A DNA stretch of 41,408 nucleotides from NCBI GenBank assembly GCA_017538085.1, contig JAFYJP010000195.1, positions 1-41,408 on the forward strand, read 5' to 3'. Shown one piece after another: positions 15,180 to 39,711 of this stretch. Position numbers and translations under genes: made by a program. The notes below the pieces were generated by a model. That model saw only the letters and a list, made by a program, of their open reading frames with translations, was not told where the DNA came from and did no database searches. The first letter of the stretch is position 1, and the number at the start of each line of letters is the position of its first letter. Source of the DNA: Bacteroidales bacterium (GTDB lineage Bacteria; Bacteroidota; Bacteroidia; Bacteroidales; BM520).

Positions 15180-15203
15180 TTTACAAACAACATTTTCATA
15201 GAC

Positions 15204-17215: not shown

Positions 17216-19339
17216 ATGAAAATCAAATCATTACTCACCATTGCAATCGCAATATTAGCATCAATGCTCACACAGGCAAAAACTGTGGATATTATCACTG
17301 CTGAAAAAGTGGCAAGGAACTACTATTATCAGGAACAGAACTTTTATGCCACACCTATTAATTACAATGAAATAAATATAATTAACAGATTTGTTGAATC
17401 AAGAAACGGTGCCAATCTTCTGTACATCTTTGAAATACAGGGAGATGGTTTCATTGTCGTTTCTGCGGAGGATGTCATGACTCCTGTCATCGCACACATC
17501 ACCAAGAACGAGCCATGGAATCTGGAAAATGCCAATCCGGAATTCAAATATGTTATGGACGAATATCTCGACATGGTAGAATACACCCGTGAGAATTCGC
17601 TGCCTCAGGAAGCCGAAGTGGCAGCCGCATGGGCTTTATACACAACCGATGACGTTGCAACACTTATCTCCTCAAAAGAAGACAGAGACGAAATCAGCCC
17701 GTTACTGCATACCCTTTGGAATCAAGATTATCCATACAACTATTACTGCCCAGCTGCTTCAGGCGGTCCCGGAGGAAGATGCTACGCTGGATGTGTGGCT
17801 ACTGCAATGTCGGTTCTGATGGAATACTGGAGATGGCCGGAACATGGAAGAGGAACAACAACTTTCTATTCATCAATCGGCGGTTTTCTTATTGCAGACT
17901 ACGAGAACACCTATTACGACTGGGATGGAATGCTGACATCAATATCCCAAAACAGTGAAGATTGTGCAATATTTGCCAATGCACTACTTCAATATCATTG
18001 TGGTATCGGGGTGCAGATGAATTACGGTCCGGACGGTTCCGGTGCTTACTCATTTACTGTTCCTTATGTTATGAAGACTTTCTTCAGGTATTCGGAAGAC
18101 ATCGACATTATATCAAAAGATAACGGTTACACACAAGAGCAGTGGAACGAAATAATCTATGATGAACTATCACAGAAGCATGTACTCTACTATTCCGGTT
18201 GCAGTGAAAGCGGCTGTCATGCCTTCAACTGCGATGGATGGCGTAACACGTCCGGAACAGATTACCACCATTTCAACTTCAACTGGGGCGGTTCGGGCAA
18301 CGGCTGGTATGTCTCAACCAATCCAGGCGGGTTCAACACCAGTAACAACCTTATCATCAACGCCGTACCTGACACCGTCAACGAAACCTACCCGATGTAT
18401 GCATCCGGCCAGAAAGTTCTGACCGACAGAGTAGGCAGAGTCATGGACGGAAGCGGTCCTGTCAACAACTACATTCCTACTGAAGCTTCATGGCTAATCG
18501 ACCCGGCAAACGACCCGGCCGATTCAGTGGTAAACATTACAGTATCATGGGAATTCTTCAAACTTGCTGCGGGCGACTATGTAAGGATTTATGATGGTGC
18601 CACTACCGATGACCAGTTACTCGGCGAATACACTGGCACATCGCTGCCAGGCTCAGTAACTTCAACCGGCAAACAACTCCTCATAACCTTCTCGGCAGTA
18701 GGCTCAGGTGAAGGCTTCACTTTCATATACACTTCAACACGTCCTACATACTGCTCCGGACTGACTCAGATAACCGATGACCCATGTACAATTGAAGTGG
18801 CTCCTGAAGGAATGTACTACCAGCCCTTATCATTGTGCAGATACAAAGTGAATTATGGTAAACTTGGTGTTAAAATAACATTCGACTACATCGACACATA
18901 CGACGAAGACGACATCCTTCAAATTTATGACAGCAAAACCGATGAACTGTACACATTCTACGGAAGTGAAAAACCTGAAGACCTGTACATTGAAGGCTAC
19001 GCTCTAATAACTTTCAAATCCGACAATTTCAACTCAAGCAATTACGGATTCAGACTCACATGCACTTCATGGGACGGCATTGAAGTCTGTGACGATCAAT
19101 CTTCCGATATTGTGCTGTATCCTAACCCTGCTTCTGAGACAGTAAGAATTGACCTGACTGCCAATAACGATTTTGAATGCAAATTAATCAATCCGCAGGG
19201 TGCCGTAGTTTATTCCGAAATGTTTGAGGCGTCAACCAGCAATATCAACCTCAACATCTCAAACCTCCCAAAGGGCGTTTATGTTTTGCAACTAATTAAT
19301 AATGAGGGCGTTTTAACAAAGAAGCTCATTATCGAATAA
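17216..19339 (+). CDS. C10 family (streptopain/SpeB-like) cysteine protease with Spi/I69-like prodomain, two CUB domains and T9SS CTD
   Basis: GFIVVSAED prodomain, WNQDYPYN, AGCVATAM (C193), CHAFNCDG (H335), FNFNWGG, CUB-like DYVRIYDG...LLGEYTG...VTSTG, C-terminal LYPNPA...LPKGVYVL...KKLIIE. Confidence 0.9.
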   Translation: MKIKSLLTIAIAILASMLTQAKTVDIITAEKVARNYYYQEQNFYATPINYNEINIINRFVESRNGANLLYIFEIQGDGFIVVSAEDVMTPVIAHITKNEPWNLENANPEFKYVMDEYLDMVEYTRENSLPQEAEVAAAWALYTTDDVATLISSKEDRDEISPLLHTLWNQDYPYNYYCPAASGGPGGRCYAGCVATAMSVLMEYWRWPEHGRGTTTFYSSIGGFLIADYENTYYDWDGMLTSISQNSEDCAIFANALLQYHCGIGVQMNYGPDGSGAYSFTVPYVMKTFFRYSEDIDIISKDNGYTQEQWNEIIYDELSQKHVLYYSGCSESGCHAFNCDGWRNTSGTDYHHFNFNWGGSGNGWYVSTNPGGFNTSNNLIINAVPDTVNETYPMYASGQKVLTDRVGRVMDGSGPVNNYIPTEASWLIDPANDPADSVVNITVSWEFFKLAAGDYVRIYDGATTDDQLLGEYTGTSLPGSVTSTGKQLLITFSAVGSGEGFTFIYTSTRPTYCSGLTQITDDPCTIEVAPEGMYYQPLSLCRYKVNYGKLGVKITFDYIDTYDEDDILQIYDSKTDELYTFYGSEKPEDLYIEGYALITFKSDNFNSSNYGFRLTCTSWDGIEVCDDQSSDIVLYPNPASETVRIDLTANNDFECKLINPQGAVVYSEMFEASTSNINLNISNLPKGVYVLQLINNEGVLTKKLIIE

Positions 19340-19396: not shown

Positions 19397-21523
19397 ATGA
19401 AATTCAAATCATTACTCACATTCAGCTTAATTGCGTTATCGGCAATAGGTGTATCAGCAAAAAGCGTTGACAAGACAACAGCCGAAAAAGTCGCAAGAAA
19501 TTATTATTTTCAGCAGGCACATTATTTCGATACTCCAATATCGATTGATGCCATCAATTTTTCTGATTCATACGTAAAAAGTATTGATGACATACCCGTT
19601 ATGTATGTTTTCGACATTGAAGGCGGCGGTTTTGTTCTTGTATCTGCCGATGATGCCATGTATCCTGTATTGGGATATTGTTATGAAGAAGGTGTTAAAT
19701 TTGACATCGAGTCCCAGGGACACAATTACAAGTCATTTATTTCCAGTATGATGTATGGAATAAAAGATCTTATTACATCAAAAGCAAAGCAGGAGCCGGC
19801 AGTTGCTGAAGAATGGAAAACTTACTCAACTGACAATGCAACAGAATTAATTACTGCAAAAGACGATATTGAAGTAGGTCCTCTAATCACAGCCACATGG
19901 AATCAGGATTATCCTTACAACTATTACGCTCCATTATGCAGTGCAGGCGGCTCAGGCGGAAGATGTTACGCAGGCTGTGTGGCTACTGCTATGGCCGTTC
20001 AGATGTTCTACTGGGGTTATCCATACGTCGGTGAAGGGTCTTCAAATTACTATTGCAGCGGTTATGGTATGCAGAGCGCTTACTACAATGAAGCATATTA
20101 TGACTGGAAGGCAATGCCTACATCAATTACCAAGAACGATGAAACTGATGCAGTGCTGAACATAGCTCTCATACAGTATCACTGCGGTGTTAGTGTAAGA
20201 ATGCAGTTTGACCCGAATGGTTCAGGTGCTTATTCCGGTGATGTTCCTGGAGCTCTGCACGATCACTTCAAATATCCGTACGCAACATACGTCCAGAAAT
20301 CCAATACTAACACATGGGAAACCATGCTGATTGATCAGCTTGACAGCGGTTATCCTTTATATTACAGCGGCCATAGTCCTTCAGAAGGCGGTCACGCATT
20401 CAATTGCGACGGATATCGTGTGGTTGGAAACAACAAAACTTTCCACTTCAACTTCAACTGGGGTGGATATAAGAATTCCTGGTACACTTCAAGTTCTCCA
20501 GACGGTTTCTCACAGGACCAGGCTGTTGTTAAAGATTTCTACCCTGACGCTACAGATTATCCAACATATTTCGAAAACGTGGAAGTCACCTCCAAAGTAG
20601 GAAGAATCGATGATGGCTCAGGCCCTGTAGAAGACTATCTTCCAGGAACATACAACACTTGGCTCATCAATCCGCAATCAGACTATGACACCATCAAAAC
20701 CATCACACTGTCATGGGAATCATTTAACATTGCAGAAGGAGATGTGGTAAACGTTTATGATGGCAGCGATACTAACGCAGAACTTCTCGCTTCTTACACA
20801 AGCGGTGAAACACCAGGCTCGGTGACTTCAACAGGAAACAAGATGTTCGTTGAATTCTACGGCAATAATTCAGCTCCGGGATTCGTATTCACTTACACTA
20901 CCTCCAGACAGAAATATTGCAATACCTCTACTCCTTTAAGTTCAATTTACGGTACCATCGTCAGCAATCCTGATGACAAGCACTACAATCCTAAAACCCT
21001 GTGCCGTTGGAACTGTGTTTATCCTGAATCAACAGACGGTGGATATATCAAGTTCAACTACCTTAACACTTACGATGAAAATGATTTCGTATCCATAACC
21101 GATTTTGACACAGAAGAGACCTACATATTCTACGGCAATACAACACCGGATGAACTTATAAACTATGGGAATAAAGGCTTCCAGCTGGTATTCAGAACCG
21201 ATGGCTTCATCGAAGAAGGCAACGGATTCTCAGTTTATTTTGCCGACTGGAGTTACGATGGCATGAGAGAATTCGGGCTTGATGATATCAGAATATATCC
21301 GAATCCTGCAACAGACAAACTATACATCACCATTCCAAATATAGAGGAACAGGAAATCAAATACCAGATAGTCAACTCCAATGGCATGATAGTTGCTGAA
21401 GACACTTTATGCAGCTCTGACATTACAAGCAGCATAAATATCAGTTCATTACCGGCAGGTGTTTATGTCGTCAGATTCAGCAGCAACACTGGTGTGGCCA
21501 CAAAGAAATTTGTTGTAGAATGA
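19397..21523 (+). CDS. C10 family cysteine protease paralog with prodomain, two CUB domains and T9SS CTD
   Basis: GGFVLVSADD, WNQDYPYN, AGCVATAM (C194), GGHAFNCDG (H333), HFNFNWGG, CUB repeats, IYPNPA...LPAGVYVV...KKFVVE. Confidence 0.9.
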   Translation: MKFKSLLTFSLIALSAIGVSAKSVDKTTAEKVARNYYFQQAHYFDTPISIDAINFSDSYVKSIDDIPVMYVFDIEGGGFVLVSADDAMYPVLGYCYEEGVKFDIESQGHNYKSFISSMMYGIKDLITSKAKQEPAVAEEWKTYSTDNATELITAKDDIEVGPLITATWNQDYPYNYYAPLCSAGGSGGRCYAGCVATAMAVQMFYWGYPYVGEGSSNYYCSGYGMQSAYYNEAYYDWKAMPTSITKNDETDAVLNIALIQYHCGVSVRMQFDPNGSGAYSGDVPGALHDHFKYPYATYVQKSNTNTWETMLIDQLDSGYPLYYSGHSPSEGGHAFNCDGYRVVGNNKTFHFNFNWGGYKNSWYTSSSPDGFSQDQAVVKDFYPDATDYPTYFENVEVTSKVGRIDDGSGPVEDYLPGTYNTWLINPQSDYDTIKTITLSWESFNIAEGDVVNVYDGSDTNAELLASYTSGETPGSVTSTGNKMFVEFYGNNSAPGFVFTYTTSRQKYCNTSTPLSSIYGTIVSNPDDKHYNPKTLCRWNCVYPESTDGGYIKFNYLNTYDENDFVSITDFDTEETYIFYGNTTPDELINYGNKGFQLVFRTDGFIEEGNGFSVYFADWSYDGMREFGLDDIRIYPNPATDKLYITIPNIEEQEIKYQIVNSNGMIVAEDTLCSSDITSSINISSLPAGVYVVRFSSNTGVATKKFVVE

Positions 21524-25627: not shown

Positions 25628-28600
25628 ATGAAAAGAATTTTACGATTTGCCTTAGTGGCAATTTCAATGTTGTTAAGTGTTGCAGTAAGTGCACAGGTAA
25701 CAACATCAGGTATTTCTGGTAAAATCACCGGAAGCGACGGCACATTACCAGGAGCAACTATCGTTGTAAGACATGTTCCTTCAGGAACAACCTATGGAAC
25801 AACATCAAACAGTGAAGGCCGTTTCAATCTTCAAGGATTACGTTCCGGTGGTCCTTACAAAGTTGATATTACTTTCGTAGGCTATCATCCTGCATCTTTC
25901 GAGAACGTAACTCTCAAATTGGGTGAAACATACGTATTGAATGCAAATCTTAAACCGACAAACGTAAAAATCAATGAAGTTGAAGTCGTTGCCATTCAAG
26001 AGAATTCAATTATGAATTCAGAAAAATCAGGTACATCCACCAATATCACCTCCGAGGAAATTGATATGCTTCCTACCATTGAACGTAGCATTAACGACCT
26101 CGTAAAAATGACCCCTCAGTCAACAGGCATGTCCTTCGGCGGTCGTGACAGTCGTTACAACAACTTCACAGTCGATGGTGCAGGCTTCAACAACAATTTT
26201 GGTCTGAGCAGCGATCTTCCTGGTGGCAGCAATGGTCCTATAAGCATTGATGCTCTTGAGCAGATCAGTGTTAACATCGCTCCATACGATGTTCGTCAGT
26301 CACGTTTCACAGGTGCTGCCATCAATGCCATCACAAAATCCGGTACAAACGAAATTAAGGGAAGCGTTTACACTTTCCAACAATTCCCTGGCTTACACGG
26401 ATACAAGGTTGCTGGTGACTCTGTAGCAAACGCAGTCAACATCAGTTCACAGACATACGGCTTAAGCGTTGGCGGTCCTCTCATTAAGAACAAATTATTC
26501 TTCTTCATAAACGGTGAATACTCTCCTATGGTAAATGCAGGTCCGTCATGGAAGCCATACGAAGGTGACGACCCAACTTTCGACGGCGATGCAACCACCA
26601 ACACTTCACGTACAACCGTAACTGACCTTGCAAGAGTTAAAAACTATCTTATTGAAAAATATGGTTACGACCCAGGCGAATATGGTCAGGGCGGATGGAC
26701 AGCTTTCAACGACTACAATTACAAGATTATGGCTCGTTTGGACTGGAATATCAACCGTAACAACAAGTTAATGTTCCGTTTCAACAAGGTTCAGAACTCC
26801 GTCATGAACCTCACAAATGCAAGCTCCTGCCCTTCAGGACTTTATCGTGACAGAAACTACAGCCGTATGGGTGTCTATTCAATTGCATTCAGCAACAACT
26901 TCTACAGAATGAACAATAATGTCACATCATTTGCATTAGACTGGAACTCACGCATAAGTGACAGAGTTTCCAATCAGTTACTTGCTTCATACAATATGAT
27001 TGGTGACCAGCGTTCAACCCCATCATCAACAGTTTTCCCACACGTTGATATTTTCAAAGACGGACATCAATACATGTCATTCGGTACTGAACTTTTCTCA
27101 TATCACAATGAAGTCATCAACAATACTGCTGACATTATCGACAATGTAACCATTGACCTTGGTAATCATACTATTACAGCAGGTTTCGCTTTCGAATGGA
27201 TGTATGTTCGTAACTCCTATATTCGTGAAGGCACATCATACTATCGTTACGAAAGCGTTGACGATTTCCTGAATAACGCAACACCTATAGGAATGGGTAT
27301 CACATACGGATACAATGGCAACGACGCTCCTGGCCAAATGCTCACATACGCACAAGAAAGCTTGTATGCACAGGACGAATGGAACATCACTGACAATTTC
27401 AAGTTGACATACGGCATTCGTTTTGATCTTCCTAACTATCTTGACAAGGACATGGTTAAGAACAATGTTATTGACAGTATTGCTACAGCAAATAATTTTG
27501 CAGGTGGTGAATGGAACACTGGAACATGGCCAAAATCAAATATTTCAATCAACCCACGTTTAGGTTTCAACTGGGACATCAACGGTGACCGCAGTCTCCA
27601 GCTCCGTGGTGGAACAGGTCTCTTCACCGGTGTCAACCCATTTGTATGGTTCACCAACCAGGTAGGTAGTGCAGCATTTGTACAATCTCCTGAAATGAGT
27701 TTTGCCGAAGCTGACATAGCATCAAAGCTCCCTGGCATAGTATTCTATAAAGACTACAAGGAGCTTCTTGCTAAATATCCTGACGTCTTCCCAAAAGAAC
27801 CAGATGCTGATTATCTTCCAAGCGGCTCAACAATATGTCTCGTTGACAAAAACTTCAAGTTCCCGCAGGTATGGAGAAGCAATCTCGCTCTTGACGTTGA
27901 ACTCCCATGGAACATGGTTCTCACTCTCGAAGCTCTCTACACTCGTGACGTCGTAGGCGTTAAACAGTTAAATGTCAACCAGACAGATTCCGATCTTCAA
28001 ATGTATGGTGCAGACAACCGTACAGTTTGGGAAGGCAGTCCTAAGGTATCAAACGATATTGCAGCAGCAATGCTCTTCACCAATACCACAAAGAAAGGTT
28101 ACTCAACTCAGCTGACAGCTCAACTCACTAAGAACATGACAAAGGGTTTCTCAGGTATGGTAGCTTATACCTATTCTATCTCTAAGGACCTCACATCAAA
28201 TCCTGGTTCAGCTGCTTACTCAGCATGGACATCAAGCACAGCTGTCAACTCTCTTAACGATGAAGAACTCGGATACAGCGTATTCTCTGTTCCTCACCGC
28301 GTTGTAGGTGACATCTCCTATCGTATTGACTATGCTAAGCATTTCGCAACAACAATTTCCCTCTACTATGAAGGTCAGCACAACGGTCGTATCAGCTACG
28401 TTTACAACAATGACGTCAATGGCGACGGTATCAGCGCTGATTTAATCTATGTTCCTAAGTCTGCTGATGAAATCAATTTCGTTGATATGACTGACAAAGA
28501 CGGTAACGTCCTTATGACAGCACAAGCACAAAGTGATGTCTTCATGAACTATATCAACAACAACAAATACCTCAAATCACGCATGGGCAACTATGCTGAA

Positions 28601-28942
28601 CGTTTCGGCGGTCTCCAGAGATGGGTCAACGAATTCAATGTAAAACTTGCTCAAGATATTTACACCACTTCCAGAACTGACCATCGCTATGGCATTCAGA
28701 TTACAGCCGACATCCTCAATATTGCTAACATGATTAACAGCAACTGGGGTTGCTACTACACCAACAAATGGCTGAACTATCAGAATCTTGCTCTCCTCAA
28801 TGTGGTTGACAAGGGCACAAGCACAACTGCTCCTACATTCACACTGAGAAGCAATGACTTTGAAAACGATGTTGAATGGACTCCTGCTAAGGTCGCTTCC
28901 AACTGCTGGGGCGTCTTATTAGGTCTTCGTCTGATATTCTAA
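25628..28942 (+). CDS. TonB-dependent receptor, Oar-like, with N-terminal carboxypeptidase-regulatory-like domain
   Basis: AQVTTSGISG, VPSGTTYGT, GGPY, NNNFGLS, PISIDA, APYDVRQ..FTG..INA.TKSGTN, YAQDEW, PRLGFNWD, C-terminal LGLRLIF. Confidence 0.92.
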   Translation: MKRILRFALVAISMLLSVAVSAQVTTSGISGKITGSDGTLPGATIVVRHVPSGTTYGTTSNSEGRFNLQGLRSGGPYKVDITFVGYHPASFENVTLKLGETYVLNANLKPTNVKINEVEVVAIQENSIMNSEKSGTSTNITSEEIDMLPTIERSINDLVKMTPQSTGMSFGGRDSRYNNFTVDGAGFNNNFGLSSDLPGGSNGPISIDALEQISVNIAPYDVRQSRFTGAAINAITKSGTNEIKGSVYTFQQFPGLHGYKVAGDSVANAVNISSQTYGLSVGGPLIKNKLFFFINGEYSPMVNAGPSWKPYEGDDPTFDGDATTNTSRTTVTDLARVKNYLIEKYGYDPGEYGQGGWTAFNDYNYKIMARLDWNINRNNKLMFRFNKVQNSVMNLTNASSCPSGLYRDRNYSRMGVYSIAFSNNFYRMNNNVTSFALDWNSRISDRVSNQLLASYNMIGDQRSTPSSTVFPHVDIFKDGHQYMSFGTELFSYHNEVINNTADIIDNVTIDLGNHTITAGFAFEWMYVRNSYIREGTSYYRYESVDDFLNNATPIGMGITYGYNGNDAPGQMLTYAQESLYAQDEWNITDNFKLTYGIRFDLPNYLDKDMVKNNVIDSIATANNFAGGEWNTGTWPKSNISINPRLGFNWDINGDRSLQLRGGTGLFTGVNPFVWFTNQVGSAAFVQSPEMSFAEADIASKLPGIVFYKDYKELLAKYPDVFPKEPDADYLPSGSTICLVDKNFKFPQVWRSNLALDVELPWNMVLTLEALYTRDVVGVKQLNVNQTDSDLQMYGADNRTVWEGSPKVSNDIAAAMLFTNTTKKGYSTQLTAQLTKNMTKGFSGMVAYTYSISKDLTSNPGSAAYSAWTSSTAVNSLNDEELGYSVFSVPHRVVGDISYRIDYAKHFATTISLYYEGQHNGRISYVYNNDVNGDGISADLIYVPKSADEINFVDMTDKDGNVLMTAQAQSDVFMNYINNNKYLKSRMGNYAERFGGLQRWVNEFNVKLAQDIYTTSRTDHRYGIQITADILNIANMINSNWGCYYTNKWLNYQNLALLNVVDKGTSTTAPTFTLRSNDFENDVEWTPAKVASNCWGVLLGLRLIF

Positions 28943-28960
28943 CTTTATCATTGCATTATG

Positions 28961-28997
28961 AAAACGTGGGGATGATTTTCATTCCCACGTTTTTTTT
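28961..28997 (+). terminator. Intrinsic terminator after the TonB-dependent receptor
   Basis: AAAACGTGGGGATGA-ttt-TCATTCCCACGTTTT stem followed by a T-tract. Confidence 0.85.
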
Positions 28998-29030
28998 GCT
29001 CAAAAATCAATTCATTAACGTAATTATTTT

Positions 29031-29038
29031 TATTTTCG
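29031..29038 (+). promoter_or_regulatory. Possible variant -7 promoter for the 29070-35600 operon
   Basis: TATTTTCG(CA), one mismatch to TAnnTTTG, just downstream of the terminator and 31 nt before the ATG. Confidence 0.4.
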
Positions 29039-29069
29039 CATTTTGTTTAATTTCAAATATAATTTCAAA

Positions 29070-29822
29070 ATGAAAAAGATAATTCTTACAGCTCTTGCAA
29101 TACTCATTTACAATATCGGCTTTGCGCAATATCCGCGTATTTATGGAGTTACCACATACGAATTGATTTTTTCATCAGCCCAATATAATGTTTTCGACAG
29201 CAAAAGCGGCAACGTCCTGCGATTCTCCCCATGGTTCAATCTTGAGGAATCAGTGAACTTCGACATAGCGACTGTTGTCGGATTCACCGCCGGAATATCA
29301 GTGAAAAACATTGGTATCATCCATAAACTGAGTGACCCTTCCACAATTGACCCAAAATTTGATAGCACACCCATCAAGAAAGAATTCCGCTCATATAATA
29401 TAGGTATCCCCGTAGGTTTCAAACTCGGCAACCTGTCACAATTTTTCATATACGGAGGTTATGAGTTCGAAATCCCAATCAACTTTAGGGAAAAAACTTA
29501 TATAGATGGAGCAAAGACAAAATACGAAAGCGAATGGTTCAGCAACAAAACACCGAGATACATGCAATCGCTGTACCTTGGACTGAAGTTCCCATATAAT
29601 TTAGGTATAAAAGCCAAATACTACCTCACCAACTTCTTCGCAAACGATTGTGAAGACTATGTGCATGACTATCCTGCAATTAAATACAAGGATTTTGAGG
29701 CACGGCCTTTCTACTTGAGTCTGACCATTGATTTGTTCAACAAAATGGATACAAGAATTTCCATTCCATCACTGAACAGCAAAAGCAAAAAAAATAGTGA
29801 GCCGCAGTATTATTACGATTAA
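29070..29822 (+). CDS. Hypothetical exported protein, probable outer-membrane beta-barrel
   Basis: Signal peptide MKKIILTAL...GFA-Q; alternating amphipathic strands (GFTAGISVKNIG, RSYNIGIPVGFKLG, FFIYGGY, SLYLGL, GIKAKYYL, FYLSLTI). The ATG at 29070 is preferred. Confidence 0.6.
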   Translation: MKKIILTALAILIYNIGFAQYPRIYGVTTYELIFSSAQYNVFDSKSGNVLRFSPWFNLEESVNFDIATVVGFTAGISVKNIGIIHKLSDPSTIDPKFDSTPIKKEFRSYNIGIPVGFKLGNLSQFFIYGGYEFEIPINFREKTYIDGAKTKYESEWFSNKTPRYMQSLYLGLKFPYNLGIKAKYYLTNFFANDCEDYVHDYPAIKYKDFEARPFYLSLTIDLFNKMDTRISIPSLNSKSKKNSEPQYYYD

Positions 29823-29824
29823 TA

Positions 29825-32800
29825 ATGACAACACACAGAAACAGTAAATTAGGCACTACATCAGGAGTATTTCTGCCATCGCTTCTGACCATCGTCGGGG
29901 CAATAATGTTCCTGCGATTGGGTTGGATAATCCAACATGGCGGGCTGATACAGTCAATTTGGATAGTCATCACTGCCTTCGCAATGTCCCTGATTACAGG
30001 ATGTTGCCTGTCGTCAATTGCAACCGACAAGAAGATACAGGATGACGGCATATATCATATACTTACGAGAAGTCTGGGGCTGCCGATGGGAAGCACCATC
30101 TGCATTATGATGACTCTTGCCCTGATTTTCAGTGCCGCATTGCAAATAATAGGTATATCCGAATCCCTGCTCGACATTTCAAAAGCAAGCAATTTTCTGC
30201 ATATTGCACCATCAGCCGCATCATACAGGATTATCGGTTCGATATTGCTACTACCTGTCTTCGCATTGGTGATGATATCCCGTAAATCCACATTAATTCA
30301 GAAATTCAAATATGTGGTCGTCATCACCATCATCCTTGCAACCATTTCCATAATTGCCGGTTTATTTACAAAAGAAGACATTCATCCTCTTGTGCCAACT
30401 ACAGGAACCGCATACGACGGTCACTCATGGATTTATATTTTCAGCATATTTTTCCCTGCATTATCAGGTTTTGCCACCGGCCTCGCCAATTCAACAGGTT
30501 TGAAGGACGCTAAGAAATCCATTCCGAGAGGGATGATTCTCGCAATAATCACAAGTGCCGTCATATATCTTTCAGTAATAATACTGCTTGCGTATGAAGT
30601 CAGACCCGACATTCTCAAGACGACCAATTATCTTCCTTCAATATCATGGAATGCCACGATAACATTTATATGCTGTTGGATATCACTTGTCTTCATAGCC
30701 ATAAATGCTCTTACAATCGGATCCGACATAATTCTATCCATGGTTCATGACAAGGTGCTGCCAGAGTTCTTCGCCCATTCCTCTGACAATTCTGGTAAGC
30801 CGGTCATTAACATTGTAATCATGTTTGTCCTCACCGAATGTGCAATACTCATCGGTGATTTCAACACCTTAGCTCGGATAACAACATTTTTCCTGCTTGT
30901 TTCATACGCGCTCATCAATCTTGCGCTGATGCTTGAGAAATGGACTAACCCGGATTTCCGGCCCACATTCGATGTTAGCAAATATATAGGTCTCATCGGA
31001 TTGTTTATATGCAGTGTTGCCTTATACGACATTAATCGCTATGGGATGCTGGGAACAGTAATTGCCGTAATTCTGCTCTACTTTTTCATCAGACGCAAAA
31101 GACTTCAGCTCGAATATGATGATATATGGCAAAACGTACTCCTCGCCATCACAAAAACATCTATTTCAAGAATAAACAAAAGAAAACTCGAAAACAGAAC
31201 GTGGCAGCCCAACATCATCGTTTTCAGCGGTGACAAAGACCAGCGGCCGTATCTTGTAGATTTCGGAAAATGGATTGCAGGCAAACATGGATTTGTAAGC
31301 AACTTCAACATCACAACATCAAAAGAAAAAAAGAACGCATACAAAAATTCACGTCGTGACAGCAATGTCATTGAAAACAAAATATTTCCGTCAAACGACA
31401 TATACAGCGGAATAGAGACTGTGGCAAGTGTATATGGGTTTGCCGGAATCGAACCCAATACCGTATTGTTAGGGTTTAACAGCACCGCCAAGAATCGCGA
31501 GAGATACATTACCATGCTCGCCAACATTTCCAAACTCGACAAAAATATCCTTCTTATCCATTACAACGAAGACAACGGCTTTGGAAACAAGAAGAATTTC
31601 GACGTTTGGGTTACTCCGGGTGAAAGAGACAGCCTCTTCGCGCTCAATGTTATCAAGCTGATTAGCAATTCAACCGAATGGTCACAATGCTCGCTCAGAA
31701 TCAAGGTGGTGAACAGCAACAATTCCTCATACAATCTTGTGTATAACAAAGTTGAGGAAATAATGGCACAACTTCGAATAAGCGGCGAAATCCTAATCAT
31801 CAACAACGAACTCGAAGACAAACCAGTAAAAGACTTAATCGCCTCACATTCGACCGATGCAGATGTCATCTTCATTGCCGTACCACCTACTGGAAACTAT
31901 AACGAGAAATACGACTACATGTCCAACCTCTCACAAATCAACAAGACAATCATATTCGTCAAGGCCTCAACCGAGTTCCAGTCAATAGGCAACCTCGACA
32001 TCATCACCAAACAGCTATTGCAACCAGAACAGACAGCAGTCACAGAAGAGGATGTCGAACTGCAACTTCCTATACGTCAGGAAGCAGCATCATTCTTCGT
32101 TGACCTTGACAAACAGGTCCAGACAGCCATTGACAAATCATTGAACAACCGTTTTGACCTGATTTCCAAATATTTCAAAACCAATATCGAGTACATACTC
32201 GAAACTGTAAAAAACAACTACGTTCAGACAAATTCCCCGGGAAGATTCCGTCACATTGCACATATTTCAGGAAAAACCATCAAACAAAAGTTTCTGGAAT
32301 TCATCAATAACATACTGCCCGAGATACATAATCTAATTTTAGGCAGCAGCAGGGATTTCCTAAACGAAATGTCAACAATATGTGCTTCTGTACCTAAAAC
32401 ATTCACAGTGTTTTACGAGGAAAATCTATCCTACCCCTCTGATAACGACACTCACGACATCATCAAATTCAAGAAGAAACTCGCACGTTATTTCAAACAC
32501 AACAGAGAAGGATTCTACCCTTACGAAGTCAAAATCGACAAGTTCATAACCAACAGGTTGGATGCCATGTACAACGAAATGATGACCAAAGCATTCGACC
32601 AATTCAAGGATTATTGTCTTTCGTATTATTTCAATGTCAACAACATCATCAATTCCATCGATGACACTAATGCAATAATAAACGGTTCCTGCAACATTGA
32701 AGGCTTCAATTTCGATAAGGCAGTTGAGAACATATATTCTCACATTGAGACTTCCAATGACAAAAACAACAAGACTGTCAATGAAATAAAGAACACTCTT

Positions 32801-34864
32801 ACCGCTATAAAGAACAAATATTTTGATGAAATACGCAATTATTTTGACGTTCTCAACTTCGGTGAAATCAAAGTCAAATCCAATGCTGTTAACTGTAACA
32901 GCTGTTCAGACGCAGTAACTGACAAATTCGACAGACTCAGCACAATACTGCCGGCATTGTTTAACAGACTGGTACTCAACACCGACCTCACAATCTTCAA
33001 AATAAAACTCAAGAGTTACTGTTCTGAAACGCTATCCCTCATAACTGATTTCATCAACAATAAAGTCATCCCGTTCCATGAGGCATTCATCAGCGCAATC
33101 AAGGAAAACAACAACATAGAGCTCGTTGAGACATCCTCCGAATATGACATGAAATCCGACATGTTCTCACATTTCAGTGAAATCAACGACAAAATAAACA
33201 AGAGTATTCTTCGTTTTCCGTCCGAAATAACAATTCTCGACAATCAGGCAGTGGCATGCCTTGGGGATGAAAACATCCACTCAGTGCATTCATCCAACTT
33301 CGCCGCATCGCGACTGCTTGACAATTCAGTGATCTACTATTATTCCAACAACATAAAGAAACAACTCAACCTCCTCGGTTCCAAAGTTGACAGTTCGCTC
33401 GACAAGCACAAGGACATCATCACACAGCTGTCATTCACCAATGAAGACAATGACGAGCAGAAAGATGCCATCATTCTTAACATCTACAATCTGATAATTG
33501 ACCTCAAGACATCGCTGAGCGAAACATGCCACGAAATACAGTCAACAGAAACCATTACTGACGAACAGCTGCAAATCGAACAGTTCATTGACTCTTCCCA
33601 CAATCTGCACAACATCATCAGCACTAACATCAACGATAAGAAAAAGGAGAAAATTCTTTCACTGCGTGAAAAGATATCCGTTTCATTCCACAAGACACTG
33701 TCGAAAATCTTCTATCGCCAGAACTCAAGCATCAAATTTGCCAAGAATCTTCAGCAGAGAAATTCCGACAATGAACTTCTGAAACTTTATATCAACGCAA
33801 TCAACAAAATATCGCTGAAACCTGAAGTTGACCAGACTCTCCCATACTCCTACAAACAGTTATTCATCAATAACCAGCAGTACAACAAGGAATTATGGGT
33901 CGGAAGAGTCAGGGAAACAAACGACTTCAACATTCTTCTAGGTCAGTACAACAGTCTGAAGGCAGGAGCGATTATGGTTACCGGAGGCATAGGCTCAGGC
34001 AAAACCTTCTTCTCGTATCACGTTGCCAAGACTGCATTTCCGGACCAGCAGATATTCACCATAAAATCCGTTACCGGCGGAAGTGCATCTGTAAGCAAGT
34101 TCGAGACCTCATTTCTCAGAGCCATCGAAATGCAGAATATATCTTTATTCAAGGCTATCCGCGAAATCCCTAAAGGCTCAATTTTCATCCTCGACAACAT
34201 TGAACAATGGTGGCACCGCGGTGACAAAGGCAATGATGTGATAAAACTGATCACCGAGTTGGTAAACAAATACAGCGAAAACTATCTGTTTATTTTGAAT
34301 TCAAACACCGAAGGCCTTAACGCTCTGCAACTTACCACCAACATACGAGATATAATAATCGGTACTGTCAATCTGCTTCCGTTCAGCGCTGAAGAAATCG
34401 AAGCCATCATCACAAGACGTCATAAGGCAGGAAACATGCATATATGCATTGACAACAAGAATGAAAAACTTCTGCGTCCATGGCACTATGCACAACTGTT
34501 CCTGCAATATGACAAACTAACGACTGGCAACATCAAATCAGCCTTAAGCACATGGCTCGCATGTATCGACAAAGTAGAAAACGACACTATTTTCGTACAT
34601 CATCCTGAAGTTCCGAAGTCATTGCCGTTCAATGAATTAACAAAACAACAGATTATATTTCTCGTACAGTTCATAATACATAACAACATGTCATACGAAA
34701 GGATGCAGGCAATTTACAATCGCCCGATATCAAGTCTGAAACAGGATGTCAACGTGCTTATCAGGTTAAGGCTTCTTGAAAAGAAGAGCGAGAATGTTAT
34801 CGGAATAAACAATATCCTATATCCATTTATTATAGAGGAACTTAACAACATAGAAATGATTTAA
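29825..34864 (+). CDS. SLC12/cation-chloride cotransporter-like (APC-fold) permease fused to a helical region, a P-loop NTPase and a C-terminal winged helix
   Basis: LGTTSGVFLP.LLTIVGAIMFLRLGW, LSSIAT, IYHILTRSLG, FSIFFPALSG, LKDAKKSIPRG, FFLLVSYALIN, FRPTF and RTWQPNIIV (CCC signatures); WVGR at aa 1358, Walker A GGIGSGKT at aa 1387, Walker B IFILDN at aa 1457. Confidence 0.85.
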   Translation: MTTHRNSKLGTTSGVFLPSLLTIVGAIMFLRLGWIIQHGGLIQSIWIVITAFAMSLITGCCLSSIATDKKIQDDGIYHILTRSLGLPMGSTICIMMTLALIFSAALQIIGISESLLDISKASNFLHIAPSAASYRIIGSILLLPVFALVMISRKSTLIQKFKYVVVITIILATISIIAGLFTKEDIHPLVPTTGTAYDGHSWIYIFSIFFPALSGFATGLANSTGLKDAKKSIPRGMILAIITSAVIYLSVIILLAYEVRPDILKTTNYLPSISWNATITFICCWISLVFIAINALTIGSDIILSMVHDKVLPEFFAHSSDNSGKPVINIVIMFVLTECAILIGDFNTLARITTFFLLVSYALINLALMLEKWTNPDFRPTFDVSKYIGLIGLFICSVALYDINRYGMLGTVIAVILLYFFIRRKRLQLEYDDIWQNVLLAITKTSISRINKRKLENRTWQPNIIVFSGDKDQRPYLVDFGKWIAGKHGFVSNFNITTSKEKKNAYKNSRRDSNVIENKIFPSNDIYSGIETVASVYGFAGIEPNTVLLGFNSTAKNRERYITMLANISKLDKNILLIHYNEDNGFGNKKNFDVWVTPGERDSLFALNVIKLISNSTEWSQCSLRIKVVNSNNSSYNLVYNKVEEIMAQLRISGEILIINNELEDKPVKDLIASHSTDADVIFIAVPPTGNYNEKYDYMSNLSQINKTIIFVKASTEFQSIGNLDIITKQLLQPEQTAVTEEDVELQLPIRQEAASFFVDLDKQVQTAIDKSLNNRFDLISKYFKTNIEYILETVKNNYVQTNSPGRFRHIAHISGKTIKQKFLEFINNILPEIHNLILGSSRDFLNEMSTICASVPKTFTVFYEENLSYPSDNDTHDIIKFKKKLARYFKHNREGFYPYEVKIDKFITNRLDAMYNEMMTKAFDQFKDYCLSYYFNVNNIINSIDDTNAIINGSCNIEGFNFDKAVENIYSHIETSNDKNNKTVNEIKNTLTAIKNKYFDEIRNYFDVLNFGEIKVKSNAVNCNSCSDAVTDKFDRLSTILPALFNRLVLNTDLTIFKIKLKSYCSETLSLITDFINNKVIPFHEAFISAIKENNNIELVETSSEYDMKSDMFSHFSEINDKINKSILRFPSEITILDNQAVACLGDENIHSVHSSNFAASRLLDNSVIYYYSNNIKKQLNLLGSKVDSSLDKHKDIITQLSFTNEDNDEQKDAIILNIYNLIIDLKTSLSETCHEIQSTETITDEQLQIEQFIDSSHNLHNIISTNINDKKKEKILSLREKISVSFHKTLSKIFYRQNSSIKFAKNLQQRNSDNELLKLYINAINKISLKPEVDQTLPYSYKQLFINNQQYNKELWVGRVRETNDFNILLGQYNSLKAGAIMVTGGIGSGKTFFSYHVAKTAFPDQQIFTIKSVTGGSASVSKFETSFLRAIEMQNISLFKAIREIPKGSIFILDNIEQWWHRGDKGNDVIKLITELVNKYSENYLFILNSNTEGLNALQLTTNIRDIIIGTVNLLPFSAEEIEAIITRRHKAGNMHICIDNKNEKLLRPWHYAQLFLQYDKLTTGNIKSALSTWLACIDKVENDTIFVHHPEVPKSLPFNELTKQQIIFLVQFIIHNNMSYERMQAIYNRPISSLKQDVNVLIRLRLLEKKSENVIGINNILYPFIIEELNNIEMI

Positions 34865-34868
34865 CGTC

Positions 34869-35600
34869 ATGGAAGGGACTGAAATTCAATACAATCTGAC
34901 GCAAACGATAATCATTATAATCGTTGTCACACTGATTCTTTTGCTCATACTGAGGCTGCTGAAATACATATTCCCGCTGCTTCCGCGTAAAGAACGCACC
35001 AGAGAATGGATAAAAAAGAATTTCGTTTATGCCGAAAGTTTCATTTGGATGATTTACCTCGCCATCATCATTCCCTACCTGCACAAGACCAACATCATTT
35101 TTGAAATAGTTGCAGTCTCCATCATCCTGATTGTAATCATATTGATAGGATATTATTTCGGAAGGGATTTCTTTGCTGGAATTGTTTTCAAGTTTGCCTA
35201 TAAAATAAAGGAAGGAGACTTCATACAATACAATGACACTGTCGGGAAAGTCAAGAAACTCGGAATACAGAACATAGAAATGGAATCAGATGACAACCGA
35301 CTGATATTCATTCCATACACATCAGCCAAACGCGGTATCTTCAGCAAGATATTCAACAATGAACAAAGTCTGACCTGCACTTTTTCATTCACCATTGACT
35401 CTCCAGCCGTTAGCAAGGAAACGATTTCCTCAATCAAAACGTATCTGTTATCCCACCCTTCTGTCTCCACGCAATATGAACCGGTAATAAAATTCAATCA
35501 GGACGAAAACATGAAGACTTTGGCAACTATCTCATTTACAACGCTTGACGAATCAATGGATGACACCATAATAGAAAATGTTAAAAACAAATTCAAATAA
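34869..35600 (+). CDS. Small-conductance mechanosensitive channel (MscS)-like protein
   Basis: Three TM helices, then RDFFAGI......IKEGDFIQ....GKVKKLG...IEME.DD..LIFIP, which matches the MscS TM3b/beta-domain pattern. Confidence 0.78.
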   Translation: MEGTEIQYNLTQTIIIIIVVTLILLLILRLLKYIFPLLPRKERTREWIKKNFVYAESFIWMIYLAIIIPYLHKTNIIFEIVAVSIILIVIILIGYYFGRDFFAGIVFKFAYKIKEGDFIQYNDTVGKVKKLGIQNIEMESDDNRLIFIPYTSAKRGIFSKIFNNEQSLTCTFSFTIDSPAVSKETISSIKTYLLSHPSVSTQYEPVIKFNQDENMKTLATISFTTLDESMDDTIIENVKNKFK

Positions 35601-35689
35601 TTCCGGTTTACAAAACATATTAGCACGATTTTTGAGAAAAGGATTTACAAAGACAAGATAATATTAACAATTAATCTATTTATATCATT

Positions 35690-36664
35690 ATGAAAAGAAT
35701 CGCTTTATTAGTATCGGTGTTGATTTTTTCAACATTTATGGTATCAGCACAATCAATTAACGATGCAGGTGCAAAATTCAACGAAGCCAATGAATCTTTC
35801 AAAGCTAAAGATTACGCCAAAGCAATAGAGAGTTATACTGAAGCTCTGAACATGTGTGAAGCTCTCGGTGAAGAAGGGGCAGAATTGGGAGAAAAAATCA
35901 AGAAACAGATTCCAAACGCATACGTGAATCAAGGTAAAACTCAAATGCAGAACAAGGATCTTGACGGAGCAATCACCACTCTGACCACTGCAATATCAGA
36001 GGCACAGAAATACAATAATGAGAAGGCTGAGAAAAGTGCCAACAAACTCCTGAGCAATGCTTATCTTGTAAAGGCAGGCAACGCATATCAGGCAAAGGAC
36101 TTTGACAATGCCCTTGACATGTGCGGAAAAGCAATAGCGAGCAACGCAGCAGCCACAAAGGCATATCTTTATGAAACCCTCATATACAGCGAACAGAATG
36201 ATGAAGAAAAGATGATTGAAGCTGCCAACCTGACAATCAAATATGCAATGGCATCCAAAGAACCAGATGAAAAAACAGCATCACAAGCCAAATCAACAGC
36301 TTACACATATTTCATCAACAAAGCTCAAGAAGCATTTGGAAAGAAGAAATATGCTGATGCCGTTACCGACCTTGACAAAGCATTACAATTCGACGAACAA
36401 AGTCAGACTGCCTTTTACCTCAAAGCTTCCAGCCTCAACTTCCAAGGGAAACACGATGATGCCATTGCAACAGCACTGCTCGGTCTCGAAGCTCCGGACA
36501 ACGACCACACACAGTTCCTCGGCATCAACCTCGAACTTGCAAGGGCTTACGAAGCTAAAGGTGACACCGAAAACGCTTGCAAATACTACAAGATTGCTGC
36601 ACAGTCACCTAACTTCAAAGCTGAAGCTGAAGGAAAAATGAAAGATGTTCTCAAATGCAACTAA
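35690..36664 (+). CDS. Exported tetratricopeptide repeat protein
   Basis: Signal peptide ending VSA-Q; TPR units (KDYAKAIESYTEAL, KDFDNAL, KKYADAVTDLDKAL). Confidence 0.85.
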   Translation: MKRIALLVSVLIFSTFMVSAQSINDAGAKFNEANESFKAKDYAKAIESYTEALNMCEALGEEGAELGEKIKKQIPNAYVNQGKTQMQNKDLDGAITTLTTAISEAQKYNNEKAEKSANKLLSNAYLVKAGNAYQAKDFDNALDMCGKAIASNAAATKAYLYETLIYSEQNDEEKMIEAANLTIKYAMASKEPDEKTASQAKSTAYTYFINKAQEAFGKKKYADAVTDLDKALQFDEQSQTAFYLKASSLNFQGKHDDAIATALLGLEAPDNDHTQFLGINLELARAYEAKGDTENACKYYKIAAQSPNFKAEAEGKMKDVLKCN

Positions 36665-38452: not shown

Positions 38453-39604
38453 TCATATACGTGTTATGCCCATAGGCCATTCATGCGAAATGATATCTAA
38501 CATGTAACGATAATCCCCATCATTATTCACAAAATCAAGAGAACTGGTATTTACAATTACTATTCTCTTTCCGCTTTCCTGACGGAAATAATCAAGATAC
38601 CCATCCTGTATCGACTGCAGATAGTCATCGGATATGTTACGTTCATAGCTGCGGCCGCGTTTTCTGATGTTACTCTGCAAATTTTCAACCGGCAGATGAA
38701 GATATACCAACAAGTCGGGTTCCGGCAATTTTGTCTTTATGATATTGAACAGCACGGAATAAAGACGGAAGAGGTCGTCAGACAAAGTCTTTCCGGCAAA
38801 AATATAAGACTTGGACAAAAAATAATCCGATACCACAAGATTATGGAACAAGTCCATATTTATCAGATTATCAGTCAATTGTCTGTATCTCGCAGCAAGA
38901 AATGAGAGTTCCACAGGAAAAGCGTACTTATCTTTATCAGCATAAAACATTGGGAGAAACGGATTGTCGGCAAACTGTTCAAGAATCAATTTTGCATTGA
39001 GGTCTTTTGCAATACGAGTTGAAAGCGATGTTTTTCCTGCGCCTATGCAGCCTTCTATGGCAATATAAGAATAAATATGTTCGATATTATGCTGTAAATC
39101 AGCGCCATAATTATCGCGGTCTATTTTTTTGACTTTCAGTGAATCAGTGCATTCAAGATATAGCTGACGGACAGTTTTATGAAGTACTGGGTGCATGAAA
39201 TCAGGGATGATGTCATTAAGCGGTTCCAATACAAATCTGCGTTCAGTAAGCTGGTGATGGGGAATTTTCAGATACAGTTCATTTACGACCAATTCGCCGT
39301 ATAGGATTATATCCACATCAATTATTCTGTTTTCATACCTGCGGTCGAAAGTCTTCCTGCGTCCCATTTCAATCTCAACAGACTTGCATACGTGCAGAAT
39401 CTCAAAAGGCAGCAGGTCGGTGGTGTAAACTACCGCACGGTTATAGAACATTTTGTCGGTGTCATATCCCCAAGGTTCCGTTTCATATATGGCACCAATC
39501 AGCTTGGGTGAGCCGAAAAAAGCATTCAGGCGATGAATGGCAGTGCTTATATTTGATTCCCTGTCGCCGAGATTTGTTCCAATCATTAAAACTAAGTCTC
39601 TCAT
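38453..39604 (-). CDS. folK: FolK (HPPK) fused to a deoxynucleoside kinase domain
   Basis: IGTNLGDR, YETEPWG, RIIDVDIIL and IPH..L.ERRFVL.PL (HPPK); IAIEGCIGAGKT, NPFL..FY and RGRSYE (dNK). The start is the ATG at 39604. Confidence 0.9.
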   Translation of the reverse strand: MRDLVLMIGTNLGDRESNISTAIHRLNAFFGSPKLIGAIYETEPWGYDTDKMFYNRAVVYTTDLLPFEILHVCKSVEIEMGRRKTFDRRYENRIIDVDIILYGELVVNELYLKIPHHQLTERRFVLEPLNDIIPDFMHPVLHKTVRQLYLECTDSLKVKKIDRDNYGADLQHNIEHIYSYIAIEGCIGAGKTSLSTRIAKDLNAKLILEQFADNPFLPMFYADKDKYAFPVELSFLAARYRQLTDNLINMDLFHNLVVSDYFLSKSYIFAGKTLSDDLFRLYSVLFNIIKTKLPEPDLLVYLHLPVENLQSNIRKRGRSYERNISDDYLQSIQDGYLDYFRQESGKRIVIVNTSSLDFVNNDGDYRYMLDIISHEWPMGITRI

Positions 39605-39658
39605 TTTCAAAAAAATTCTTTTACGGAAATATTTTAGCAATATTACAAAAAAAATATA

Positions 39659-39666
39659 TATCTTTG
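39659..39666 (+). promoter_or_regulatory. -7 promoter element for sppA
   Basis: TATCTTTG, 45 nt upstream of the ATG at 39712. Confidence 0.55.
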
Positions 39667-39711
39667 TGGTTTGAATCATAACTTTATAAACAAAAAAATA
39701 GTATTTTTATT

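Follow-up and report, generated by a model that had tools for sequence, protein, structure and literature searches.

Background

The cation-chloride cotransporters (CCC, the SLC12 family) known to date end after their cytoplasmic domain, those of animals being regulated by phosphorylation, and we know of no function established for the bacterial homologues. A gene in a Bacteroidales bacterium (assembly GCA_017538085.1, contig JAFYJP010000195.1) raises the question of what such a transporter might do with a further ~960 residues. It lies at 29825-34864 (+) of the stretch of DNA analysed here, which is 41,408 nucleotides (nt) in full and is called the window below, and an earlier note on this DNA had read it as a CCC transporter continued in the same frame by a long helical region, a nucleoside triphosphatase (NTPase) of the STAND or Orc1 kind and a winged helix-turn-helix. 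The gene proves to code for a genuine multidomain membrane protein, which is conserved and represents one of several architectures within a larger family. The extension had been taken for an oddity of one CCC gene; on the evidence of sequence comparison it is instead an evolutionary unit of its own, a helical domain followed by an ATPase/winged-helix module, mobile and found either free-standing or fused to other cation transporters. We consider it probable that this unit is a nucleotide-dependent regulator of ion and turgor (K+/osmolyte) balance, because of its conserved architecture, its retained nucleotide site, its near-constant pairing with a gene for an MscS-like channel, and its repeated links to K+ transporters (CCC, CPA2 and TrkHA).

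One gene in one frame

The gene is a single unbroken frame of 1679 amino acids (aa), even in GC content along its length. Its parts, and the channel gene that follows it, are these:

29825-31099 (+): CCC/SLC12 transmembrane domain, aa 1-425, with ~11-12 hydrophobic segments (AA_permease, TIGR00930, KCC/NKCC structures)
31142-31969 (+): CCC cytoplasmic C-terminal domain, aa ~440-715 (KCC4 alignment; invariant W460, P462 and N463)
31985-33829 (+): helical domain, aa 721-1335, eight long helices and two small beta inserts (AlphaFold2 model)
33839-33865 (+): motif LPYSYKQLF just before the ATPase core (P1340, Y1343 and F1347 invariant in alignments of 63 and 43 sequences)
33959-34384 (+): AAA+ alpha/beta core, aa 1379-1520 (strands and helices alternate in the model, five strands in all; fold matches)
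33983-34006 (+): Walker A, GGIGSGKT, aa 1387-1394 (conservation in 63 sequences)
34181-34213 (+): Walker B region, IFILDNIEQWW, aa 1453-1463 (conservation in 63 sequences)
34385-34615 (+): helical lid, aa 1521-1597, with PF.AEE...RH and GN motifs (helices at model residues 187-200, 217-231 and 235-244)
34625-34861 (+): C-terminal winged helix, aa 1601-1679, on which the MscS-like partner is predicted to dock (model, profile and complex model)
34869-35600 (+): small MscS-like channel gene, 243 aa, 4 nt past the stop of the large gene (PF00924, MscS structures)

The motifs quoted in the earlier note all stand where it had placed them: RTWQPNII with W460, WVGR from W1358, GGIGSGKT at aa 1387-1394 (nt 33983-34006), IFILDNIEQ at 1453-1461, LFILNSN at 1488-1494, LLPFSAEEIEAIITRR at 1517-1532, and TGNI with G1568. 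A Kyte-Doolittle scan of the whole protein confines the hydrophobic segments to aa 9-422, and as there is none after aa 422 the remaining ~1250 residues should be cytoplasmic.

The unusual architecture is the sole ground for suspecting an artefact, be it an assembly misjoin or a sequencing error that turned two genes into one around 31900-32100, and no evidence was found to support one. In a scan of one genome per species, we took the best 80 of 156 relatives as CCC-type loci; 67 of these independent loci, complete chromosomes of long-read metagenome-assembled genomes included, hold a single open reading frame (ORF) of 1681-2158 aa with CCC at the N-terminus, so that homologues are not always two separate genes, as the earlier note had allowed they might be. 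Six loci are cut by a contig end; in seven the frame is broken or stopped, yet the CCC domain lies immediately before the break; and no locus among the 80 carries the module without CCC upstream. In the window itself, three studies whose public runs are recorded as animal gut metagenomes gave contigs that bridge 31900-32100 with no indel within the gene (X1 covering 29000-34092, X4 30415-33375 and X15 30949-32328), and composition is even throughout. An assembly chimera is ruled out by these contigs together with the single frame in 67 loci across several phyla, and the probability that we leave to an artefact of any kind is close to nil. The CCC-fused gene is present in a single copy in the 1.81-Mb genome.

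The transporter domain

The N-terminal ~720 residues are a CCC transmembrane domain with its cytoplasmic domain. Pfam AA_permease matches aa 14-423 (E 1e-29), and the NCBIfam model for K-Cl cotransporters, TIGR00930, matches aa 5-674 (E 3e-77) with 260.6 bits against a cut-off of 953.4, a score so far under the cut-off that the protein belongs to a distant bacterial branch and is not an orthologue of the animal KCCs. Solved KCC and NKCC structures match at E values from 3e-47 to ~7e-34, the best being KCC4 (7d99, E 3e-47), whose alignment spans aa 7-660 and thus runs through the KCC4 C-terminal domain; within the same region Pfam SLC12 reaches aa 611-676 (E 3.7e-5) at 23.4 bits, below its cut-off of 27. 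The residues W460, P462 and N463 are invariant in homologues, as are Y77, P211 and Y361 (in 11 homologues), and the positions in TM3, TM6 and TM10 that we take to be the K+ and Cl- ligands fall within conserved stretches. By sequence, then, this part of the protein is an APC-fold permease of 12 transmembrane segments (TM) of the CCC/SLC12 type with its cytoplasmic domain, presumably active in cation-chloride cotransport.

The ATPase and winged-helix module

An AlphaFold2 model of aa 1336-1679, made from an alignment of 10 sequences, has a high local confidence (pLDDT 89) and a predicted template-modelling score (pTM) of 0.88, and consists of a five-stranded P-loop core, a helical lid and a winged helix of the form helix-strand-helix-helix-hairpin, in agreement with the P-loop fold expected from the motifs. 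Residue conservation was counted in 63 diverse sequences. The Walker A consensus GxxxxGK[ST] is kept, with G1387, G1392 and T/S1394 in all 63 and K1393 in 61 (R in the other 2). At the Walker B motif the first acid, D or E at 1457, is found in 63/63, and E1460, W1462 and W1463 are each found in 63/63 as well, the invariant Glu sitting three residues after the first acid. Conservation extends to the lid (R1532 63/63, H1533 61/63, G1568 63/63 and N1569 57/63) and to the winged helix (Q1615 58/63 and H1619 62/63).

Fold comparison places the module near the replication initiators. The top Foldseek matches are archaeal Orc1/Cdc6 proteins (1w5t_A, E 9e-11, then 1fnn and 2qby), next come eukaryotic ORC1/Cdc6, RuvB and RFC, and the AAA+ core also matches NSF-D2 and TnsC. 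VIA, an aligner independent of Foldseek, gives 2qby_A a Z of 15.5 (root-mean-square deviation, rmsd, 7.2; 281 residues aligned), the Cdc6 protein 7jgr_G 14.9 (rmsd 4.5, 237 aligned) and 1w5s_A 14.8 (rmsd 3.8, 246 aligned), and these Orc1/Cdc6 alignments reach model residue 321, i.e. into the winged helix. The STAND proteins MalT (Z 12.9), Avs5 (12.7) and ZAR1 (12.4) follow in rows close together. At the level of sequence the signal is weak but in the same direction. A profile of the module finds ClpC best among solved proteins (E 3e-5), then Cdc6/Orc1 2qby_A (E 7e-4, the match taking in the P[FY].AEEL..I...R stretch) and MarR/SlyA winged helices (E ~0.009); a wider profile of 43 sequences finds only ClpC (E 0.0066), and a phmmer search of PDB sequences with the module returned nothing. 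Pfam matches among the 10 members are to AAA_16 (10/10), AAA (9), nSTAND3 (8), AAA_14 (7), NACHT (2) and ATPase_2 (2), all below their cut-offs but for one marginal AAA_14 score: where the cut-off is 27, the excised module reaches 27.7 bits and the whole protein 26.7. From the model it is safe to call the module an AAA+ protein with the three-domain plan of Orc1/Cdc6. It is not safe to assign it cleanly to Orc1/Cdc6 as against STAND, because the VIA scores lie close together. Of the Orc1- or STAND-like NTPase with a winged helix-turn-helix that had been proposed, the AAA+ ATPase with lid and winged helix thus stands, Orc1/Cdc6 being the best match, and the choice between the two groups is not clean.

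The helical domain

The ~600 residues between transporter and ATPase, described earlier as helical-looking, are indeed predicted to form long helices. A model of the whole extension, aa 721-1679, made with AlphaFold2 from a 63-sequence alignment (pLDDT 85, and for the most part higher in the helical domain), shows eight helices of 39-71 residues, two small beta inserts and one linker-like stretch of low confidence. The length of the domain is 610-670 aa in 67/67 full-length relatives. Its mean pairwise identity is only 0.19, lower than that of the ATPase/winged-helix module (0.38), the CCC cytoplasmic domain (0.43) and the membrane domain (0.57).

No relative of known structure or family came to light for this domain. 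A Pfam scan gave no family common to more than 1 of 33 members; a profile search of the PDB gave helical noise (best E 0.021) and no solved relative by sequence; and the ESM Atlas held no usable match for aa 745-1330 of the window protein or for aa 1-590 of a free-standing protein. In fold searches with the 959-aa extension model, matches to the ATPase filled the lists, and the sole row for the helical domain, a match to the designed bundle 4uos (Z 12.7, rmsd 3.5, 187 aligned), carries no information. A test for internal duplication of the domain gave an hhalign probability of 52.7%.

Relatives and architectures

A word-based search with aa 1330-1679 found 13 proteins, with identities down to 29%, of which 12 are 1664-1716 aa long and all carry AA_permease or AA_permease_2; the thirteenth has 1098 aa and no recorded domain. 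The same kind of search for shorter relatives of the module yielded two fragments only, of 142 and 58 aa, and the free-standing forms surfaced in a genome sample instead. With a profile of the module, 3319 representative proteins are found at E<=1e-3, 2308 at E<=1e-10 and 755 at E<=1e-30; in the best 150 of the 3319 hits the module is C-terminal in every case, and 81 of these 150 proteins have at least 1650 aa. A sample across the phylum holds the module in 77/401 genomes and 35/180 genera, in frames that are mostly ~440, ~1000 or ~1500 aa long rather than 1700. The family reaches beyond Bacteroidota, to judge by the titles of the records: 18 of the 80 CCC-type loci are titled Myxococcota, 'delta proteobacteria', Calditrichia or Melioribacteraceae, one Hyphomicrobiales and one 'bacterium' being counted among them.

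The other architectures are represented by 18 non-CCC loci drawn from the phylum sample. The product is a soluble protein of 955-1007 aa in five of them and a short form in two others, one of 433 aa and one of at least 298 aa. Six encode proteins of 1489-1501 aa in which a CPA2-type antiporter domain is followed by a middle region and the module; one joins a membrane domain of eight predicted hydrophobic segments to a middle region and the module, and four are more distant. The CPA2 identity was scanned in two of the proteins (PF00999 at E 1e-21 and 1.7e-5, with TIGR00932 at E 6.6e-11 for locus L084). The eight-segment membrane domain (locus L091, 7062-11459 (-), aa 1-392) has no Pfam or NCBIfam match at E<=1e-3, and it may represent a third transporter family recruited to the helical and ATPase unit.

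Profile comparison with hhalign suggests that the helical domain accompanies the module in these forms: that of the CCC type is related to the N-terminal ~600 aa of the free-standing forms (probability 97.7%, E 2.5e-12, 402 columns) and to the middle region of the CPA2-type and eight-segment forms (probability 98.3%, 518 columns), relations among the helical domains spanning 97.7-98.6% in all, subject to the caveat on composition given below. In a maximum likelihood tree of 52 modules, the 43 CCC-fused ones make up one side of a branch with 100/100 support, and the tree is compatible with a single CCC fusion event, root permitting.

Some members of the family depart from this scheme. The 433-aa form without a helical domain (L086, 8346-9647 (-)) occupies the syntenic position of a 955-aa helical and ATPase protein (L082, 8221-11088 (-)), and in one genus, g83, the 14 listed hits with frames below 500 aa measure 436-466 aa, other genomes of g83 having forms near 1000 aa; the helical domain is therefore dispensable in some lineages. 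Among the CCC-type loci, L029 (2553-9026), L038 and L046, titled Polyangiales, proteobacterium or Deltaproteobacteria, have frames of 2158, 1837 and 1823 aa, and the extra 100-420 residues before CCC may be genuine N-terminal sequence or the product of a frame called too long in a genome of high GC. The CCC-fused protein of L031, titled Hyphomicrobiales, falls in a polytomy of the CCC group, the members of which are mostly titled Bacteroidales, a placement that may be due to a binning error or to transfer.

The source names seen for these proteins go no further than 'AAA family ATPase', 'amino acid permease' or 'amino acid transporter', the free-standing form being nameless, and NCBIfam release 20 has no model that names members of the family.

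The MscS-like partner

The 243-aa protein encoded directly downstream matches Pfam MS_channel_2nd (PF00924, E 4e-9) with 36.9 bits against a cut-off of 20.2, and, among solved structures, Helicobacter pylori MscS (4hw9, E 4e-4, over TM3 and the beta-domain) and YnaI; its hydrophobic segments lie at aa 6-40 and 52-107. An MscS-like homologue abuts the large gene on the same strand in 67/80 CCC-type loci, that is, in 67 of the 73 that have a downstream ORF of at least 100 aa, and its start often overlaps the preceding stop. Two further cases, in which it lies 1.3 kb downstream or 2.5 kb upstream, bring the loci that contain the gene to 69/80. The pairing is found outside the CCC type as well, for 17/18 non-CCC loci have an MscS-like gene next to the gene for the module; in 14 it follows that gene, and in 3 it lies upstream of it or overlaps it.

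Genes for K+ transport recur in the same neighbourhoods. All six CPA2-type loci have the fused protein, the MscS-like protein, TrkH and TrkA encoded in this order on one strand, and in the locus with the eight-segment membrane domain TrkA-TrkH lies directly upstream. In another locus, L089, a free-standing ATPase gene lies between two MscS-like genes of 280 and 322 aa (6647-11496 (+)), and an ordinary CCC gene of 741 aa (14136-16361 (-)) is found 3.6 kb away on the other strand.

In the window, parA/parB, dapB and the signal peptidase gene lepB are among the neighbours of the large gene, a housekeeping setting whose synteny is kept among relatives. These surroundings bear on the possibility that the protein belongs to a conflict or abortive infection system, in which a STAND-like sensor ATPase would recognise an invader and kill the cell by letting ions pass through either the MscS-like channel or the transporter to which it is fused. 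Such a role would accord with the sub-threshold nSTAND3 (8/10), AAA_16 (10/10) and NACHT (2/10) matches, with structural matches to Avs3, Avs5, BrxC and plant NLRs at Z 12.4-12.8, and with the patchy distribution over 77/401 genomes and 35/180 genera. However, PADLOC gave no hit for the large protein, its helical domain or the partner, no sensor repeat domain follows the winged helix, the gene is a single-copy one in its housekeeping context with synteny kept, and the links to TrkH/TrkA, CPA2 and CCC are consistent; we regard a conflict system as very unlikely.

Predicted docking of the module on the channel

Since the pairing of module and channel is the one constant across all architectures, this pair was chosen for complex prediction. 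One chain was the module and the other was aa 96-243 of the MscS-like protein, its cytoplasmic part; each had an alignment of 43 rows, ordered alike. The prediction scores 0.82, against 0.25 for the best of 3 controls, and so passes a mark that is reached by 58/80 solved complexes and 2/110 mismatched pairs, counts that are only rough here since custom alignments were used. The runs share at least 91% of their contacts, and the pLDDT of the partner is at least 74. We know of no solved complex of an AAA+ protein with an MscS channel, and a score owed to a memorised structure thus seems unlikely. The complex model supports binding of the module to the cytoplasmic domain of the MscS-like channel. 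On the side of the module the predicted interface comprises aa 1465-1470 after Walker B, 1496-1504 in the helix after strand 4, 1630-1631, the first helix of the winged helix (aa 1607-1618, by Q1615 and H1619) and the last three residues, 1677-1679; on the side of the channel it comprises aa 187-205 and 226-230, including the conserved P197, W198 and P205.

This interface matters for the suggestion that the protein is a transcription regulator, the winged helix binding DNA and the AAA+ part being a MalT- or Orc1-like switch that controls the adjacent mscS-like, trk and transporter genes upon ion flux. The winged-helix profile does match MarR/SlyA (E ~0.009), the Orc1/Cdc6 protein that matches best in structure, 2qby_A, is bound to DNA, some forms are soluble and lack a membrane domain altogether, and regulators often adjoin their targets. 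Yet the winged helix is weakly basic at most, with a net charge of 0 in the window protein and a mean of +2.8 in the family; its recognition helix averages +0.9 and is poorly conserved, whereas its conserved first helix lies in the predicted interface with the MscS-like protein. Moreover, the winged helix of the window protein hangs on a membrane transporter, and overlapping stop/start pairs kept across phyla are, we would suppose, more typical of subunits than of a regulator and its target. A transcription regulator is in our judgement unlikely, and the membrane-tethered one-component DNA-binding regulator envisaged in the earlier note is weakened by the predicted docking of its winged helix on the channel.

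An AAA+ chaperone or assembly factor, which would remodel, insert or disassemble the MscS-like heptamer or the transporter, could equally be expected to have the AAA+ fold and to bind the cytoplasmic domain of the channel as predicted, and the best sequence-level match to a solved protein is the ATPase of ClpC (E 3e-5). The top fold matches, however, belong to the initiator and clamp-loader clade, whose members are switches and loaders and not unfoldases; no protease or second ATPase ring is encoded nearby, and the sensor-2 Arg appears to be missing. We hold a chaperone to be quite unlikely.

A possible mechanism

If the unit is a regulator of ion and turgor balance, as we favour, it might work as follows. 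The cytoplasmic domain of the MscS-like channel would be the docking site of the ATPase/winged-helix module; binding or hydrolysis of ATP would alter the conformation or the oligomeric state of the module; the long helical domain would relay this change to the attached or associated transporter; and uptake (CCC, Trk) and release (the MscS-like channel, CPA2 efflux) would thereby be coordinated. The built-in nucleotide-dependent regulator put forward earlier fits these findings, and we infer it still. The stronger version, in which an AAA+ ATPase on a 600-aa helical stalk physically couples an MscS-type valve to CCC, CPA2 or Trk and switches the two reciprocally according to nucleotide state, is offered tentatively and is open to considerable doubt.

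Several observations weigh against the regulator reading or its details. The second Walker B residue (1458) is D in 54 sequences, N in 8, the clade of the window protein included, and E in 1, and aa 1571, which we take to be the place of the Orc1/Cdc6 sensor-2 Arg ('GDAR') from a reading of the motif and not from a residue-level structural alignment, is G in 53, K in 4, A in 4 and N in 2; hydrolysis may be slow or absent because of the Asn at the one place and the lack of an Arg at the other. The pTM of the extension model is 0.54, so that the relative arrangement of its domains is not fixed by the model, and the hhalign scores between long helical regions may be inflated by shared composition. 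As to the partner, an MscS-like gene is absent from the whole locus in six CCC-type cases where 2 kb or more of sequence follows the large gene (the other five that lack it have at most 1 kb of downstream sequence), and one non-CCC locus, L099, has none in 18 kb. As to the complex, it was modelled 1:1, whereas MscS channels are heptamers; the channel of the window has Ser at 198, where Trp is found in 39/43; and conservation does not single out the interface, being 0.45 in the module against 0.50 in the rest of it (4175/5000 random sets were as high) and 0.49 in the channel against 0.42 in the rest (576/5000 random sets as high).

Neighbouring genes in the window

Two genes lie upstream of the large gene on the same strand:

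29043-29822 (+): 259-aa ORF ending 2 nt before the large gene, small and barrel-like (weak OMP_b-brl_2, E 0.005)
25628-28942 (+): 1104-aa protein with CarboxypepD_reg and an outer-membrane barrel, directly upstream

The 259-aa ORF is possibly co-transcribed with the large gene. It is conserved only in the five closest loci (L001-L005) and the 1104-aa protein in three of them (L001, L002 and L005); as they are kept only among the closest loci, these barrel genes are not part of the conserved core. A scan for promoters and terminators gave nothing above shuffled sequences and no terminator between the large gene and its partner, and Rfam has no RNA family in 28800-36000. Contigs from an RNA library (run X17) cover parts of the gene and bridge 34864/34869, which is a hint of transcription and of a single transcript and not proof of either.

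Farther off, two tandem paralogues of 707 and 708 aa (17216-19339 and 19397-21523, both (+)) share an identical set of domains, namely a Spi inhibitor-like propeptide, a C10 cysteine peptidase, CUB and a C-terminal sorting domain of the type IX secretion system (T9SS). A secreted protein of 1027 aa (1320-4403 (+)) carries a lamin-tail domain, PKD domains and a T9SS sorting tail, and a single 408-aa ORF (38453-39679 (-)) combines an HPPK domain, which belongs to folate synthesis, at aa 31-159 with a deoxynucleoside kinase domain at aa 206-391.

Comparison with known systems

The window protein belongs to both the CCC and the AAA+ superfamilies. With the SLC12/CCC transporters (TC 2.A.30; KCC4 and NKCC1) it shares the transmembrane and cytoplasmic C-terminal domains, aligned over aa 7-660, from which it runs on for 960 aa into the helical domain and the AAA+ ATPase.

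With the archaeal Orc1/Cdc6 proteins (1w5t, 1fnn and 2qby), which are its best fold matches, it shares the AAA+ core, the lid and the C-terminal winged helix, as well as the beta5-lid motif P[FY].AEEL..I...R. Identity is only 13-15%, however, the Walker B motif here is D-[DN]-[LI]-E-x-W-W and not DE, and there is no Arg at the presumed sensor-2 place. The gene stands in transporter and channel operons with no link to replication, and the partner predicted for the winged helix is a channel rather than DNA. The window protein resembles Orc1/Cdc6 in plan but is not an initiator.

The module of NTPase, helical region and winged helix is also that of the STAND ATPases (MalT, NLRs, Avs), and since it is common to Orc1/Cdc6 too it does not discriminate between them. 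Further points of likeness to STAND are the 'DD' consensus at Walker B, the sub-threshold AAA_16 and nSTAND3 hits, and the conserved winged-helix His, H1619, which we take as a candidate for the nucleotide-contacting (MHD-like) His of STAND proteins. In contrast to them, the protein ends with the winged helix and has no C-terminal sensor repeats (TPR, WD40 or LRR), its fold scores are Z 12.4-12.9 against 15.5 for Orc1/Cdc6, and its neighbours are not of a defence type. Two archaeal proteins of Pfam ATPase_2 align over all three domains, PABY2304 (2qen; Z 14.1, rmsd 8.6, 279 aligned) and SSO1545 (2fna; Z 12.4, rmsd 8.3, 272 aligned), but these are stand-alone proteins of ~350 aa, of unknown function, without the helical domain, a transporter fusion or a channel partner.

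Secondary cation transporters, AAA+ switches and MscS-type channels are each well studied, but their combination as found here seems to be undescribed. A search of full-text literature, including PMC3924187, PMC7159879 and PMC10219603 and covering articles outside subscription journals and supplements, found no CCC-AAA+ or CPA2-AAA+ fusion and no AAA+/MscS gene pair. To our knowledge, how K+ and Cl- uptake is coordinated with emergency release of solutes is poorly known outside model Proteobacteria and Firmicutes. If the stronger, reciprocal version above is true, the window protein would be the first case of an AAA+ ATPase of the initiator clade regulating secondary transporters and a mechanosensitive channel, part of a widespread bacterial machine for turgor control. 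The regulator reading, if it is right, would give a testable handle on the function of bacterial CCCs.

In its logic, the system would be closest to the K+ transporters gated by RCK/KTN domains, such as KefC or Trk. KefC/KefB and Trk/Ktr are cation transporters gated by cytoplasmic nucleotide-binding RCK/KTN domains, and the likeness lies in a cytoplasmic nucleotide-binding domain that is C-terminal to, or associated with, a K+ transporter; one branch of the present family is even built on a CPA2 (Kef-type) membrane domain beside trkH-trkA. Here, however, the nucleotide-binding part is an AAA+/winged-helix module behind a 600-aa helical domain and not a Rossmann-fold RCK/KTN domain (a Pfam scan of the window protein gave no TrkA_N or TrkA_C hit), and an MscS-like partner is added. 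On the regulator reading, the family would represent a new class of nucleotide-dependent regulation of transporters and channels, beside those of the RCK/KTN, CBS and cyclic-nucleotide domains.

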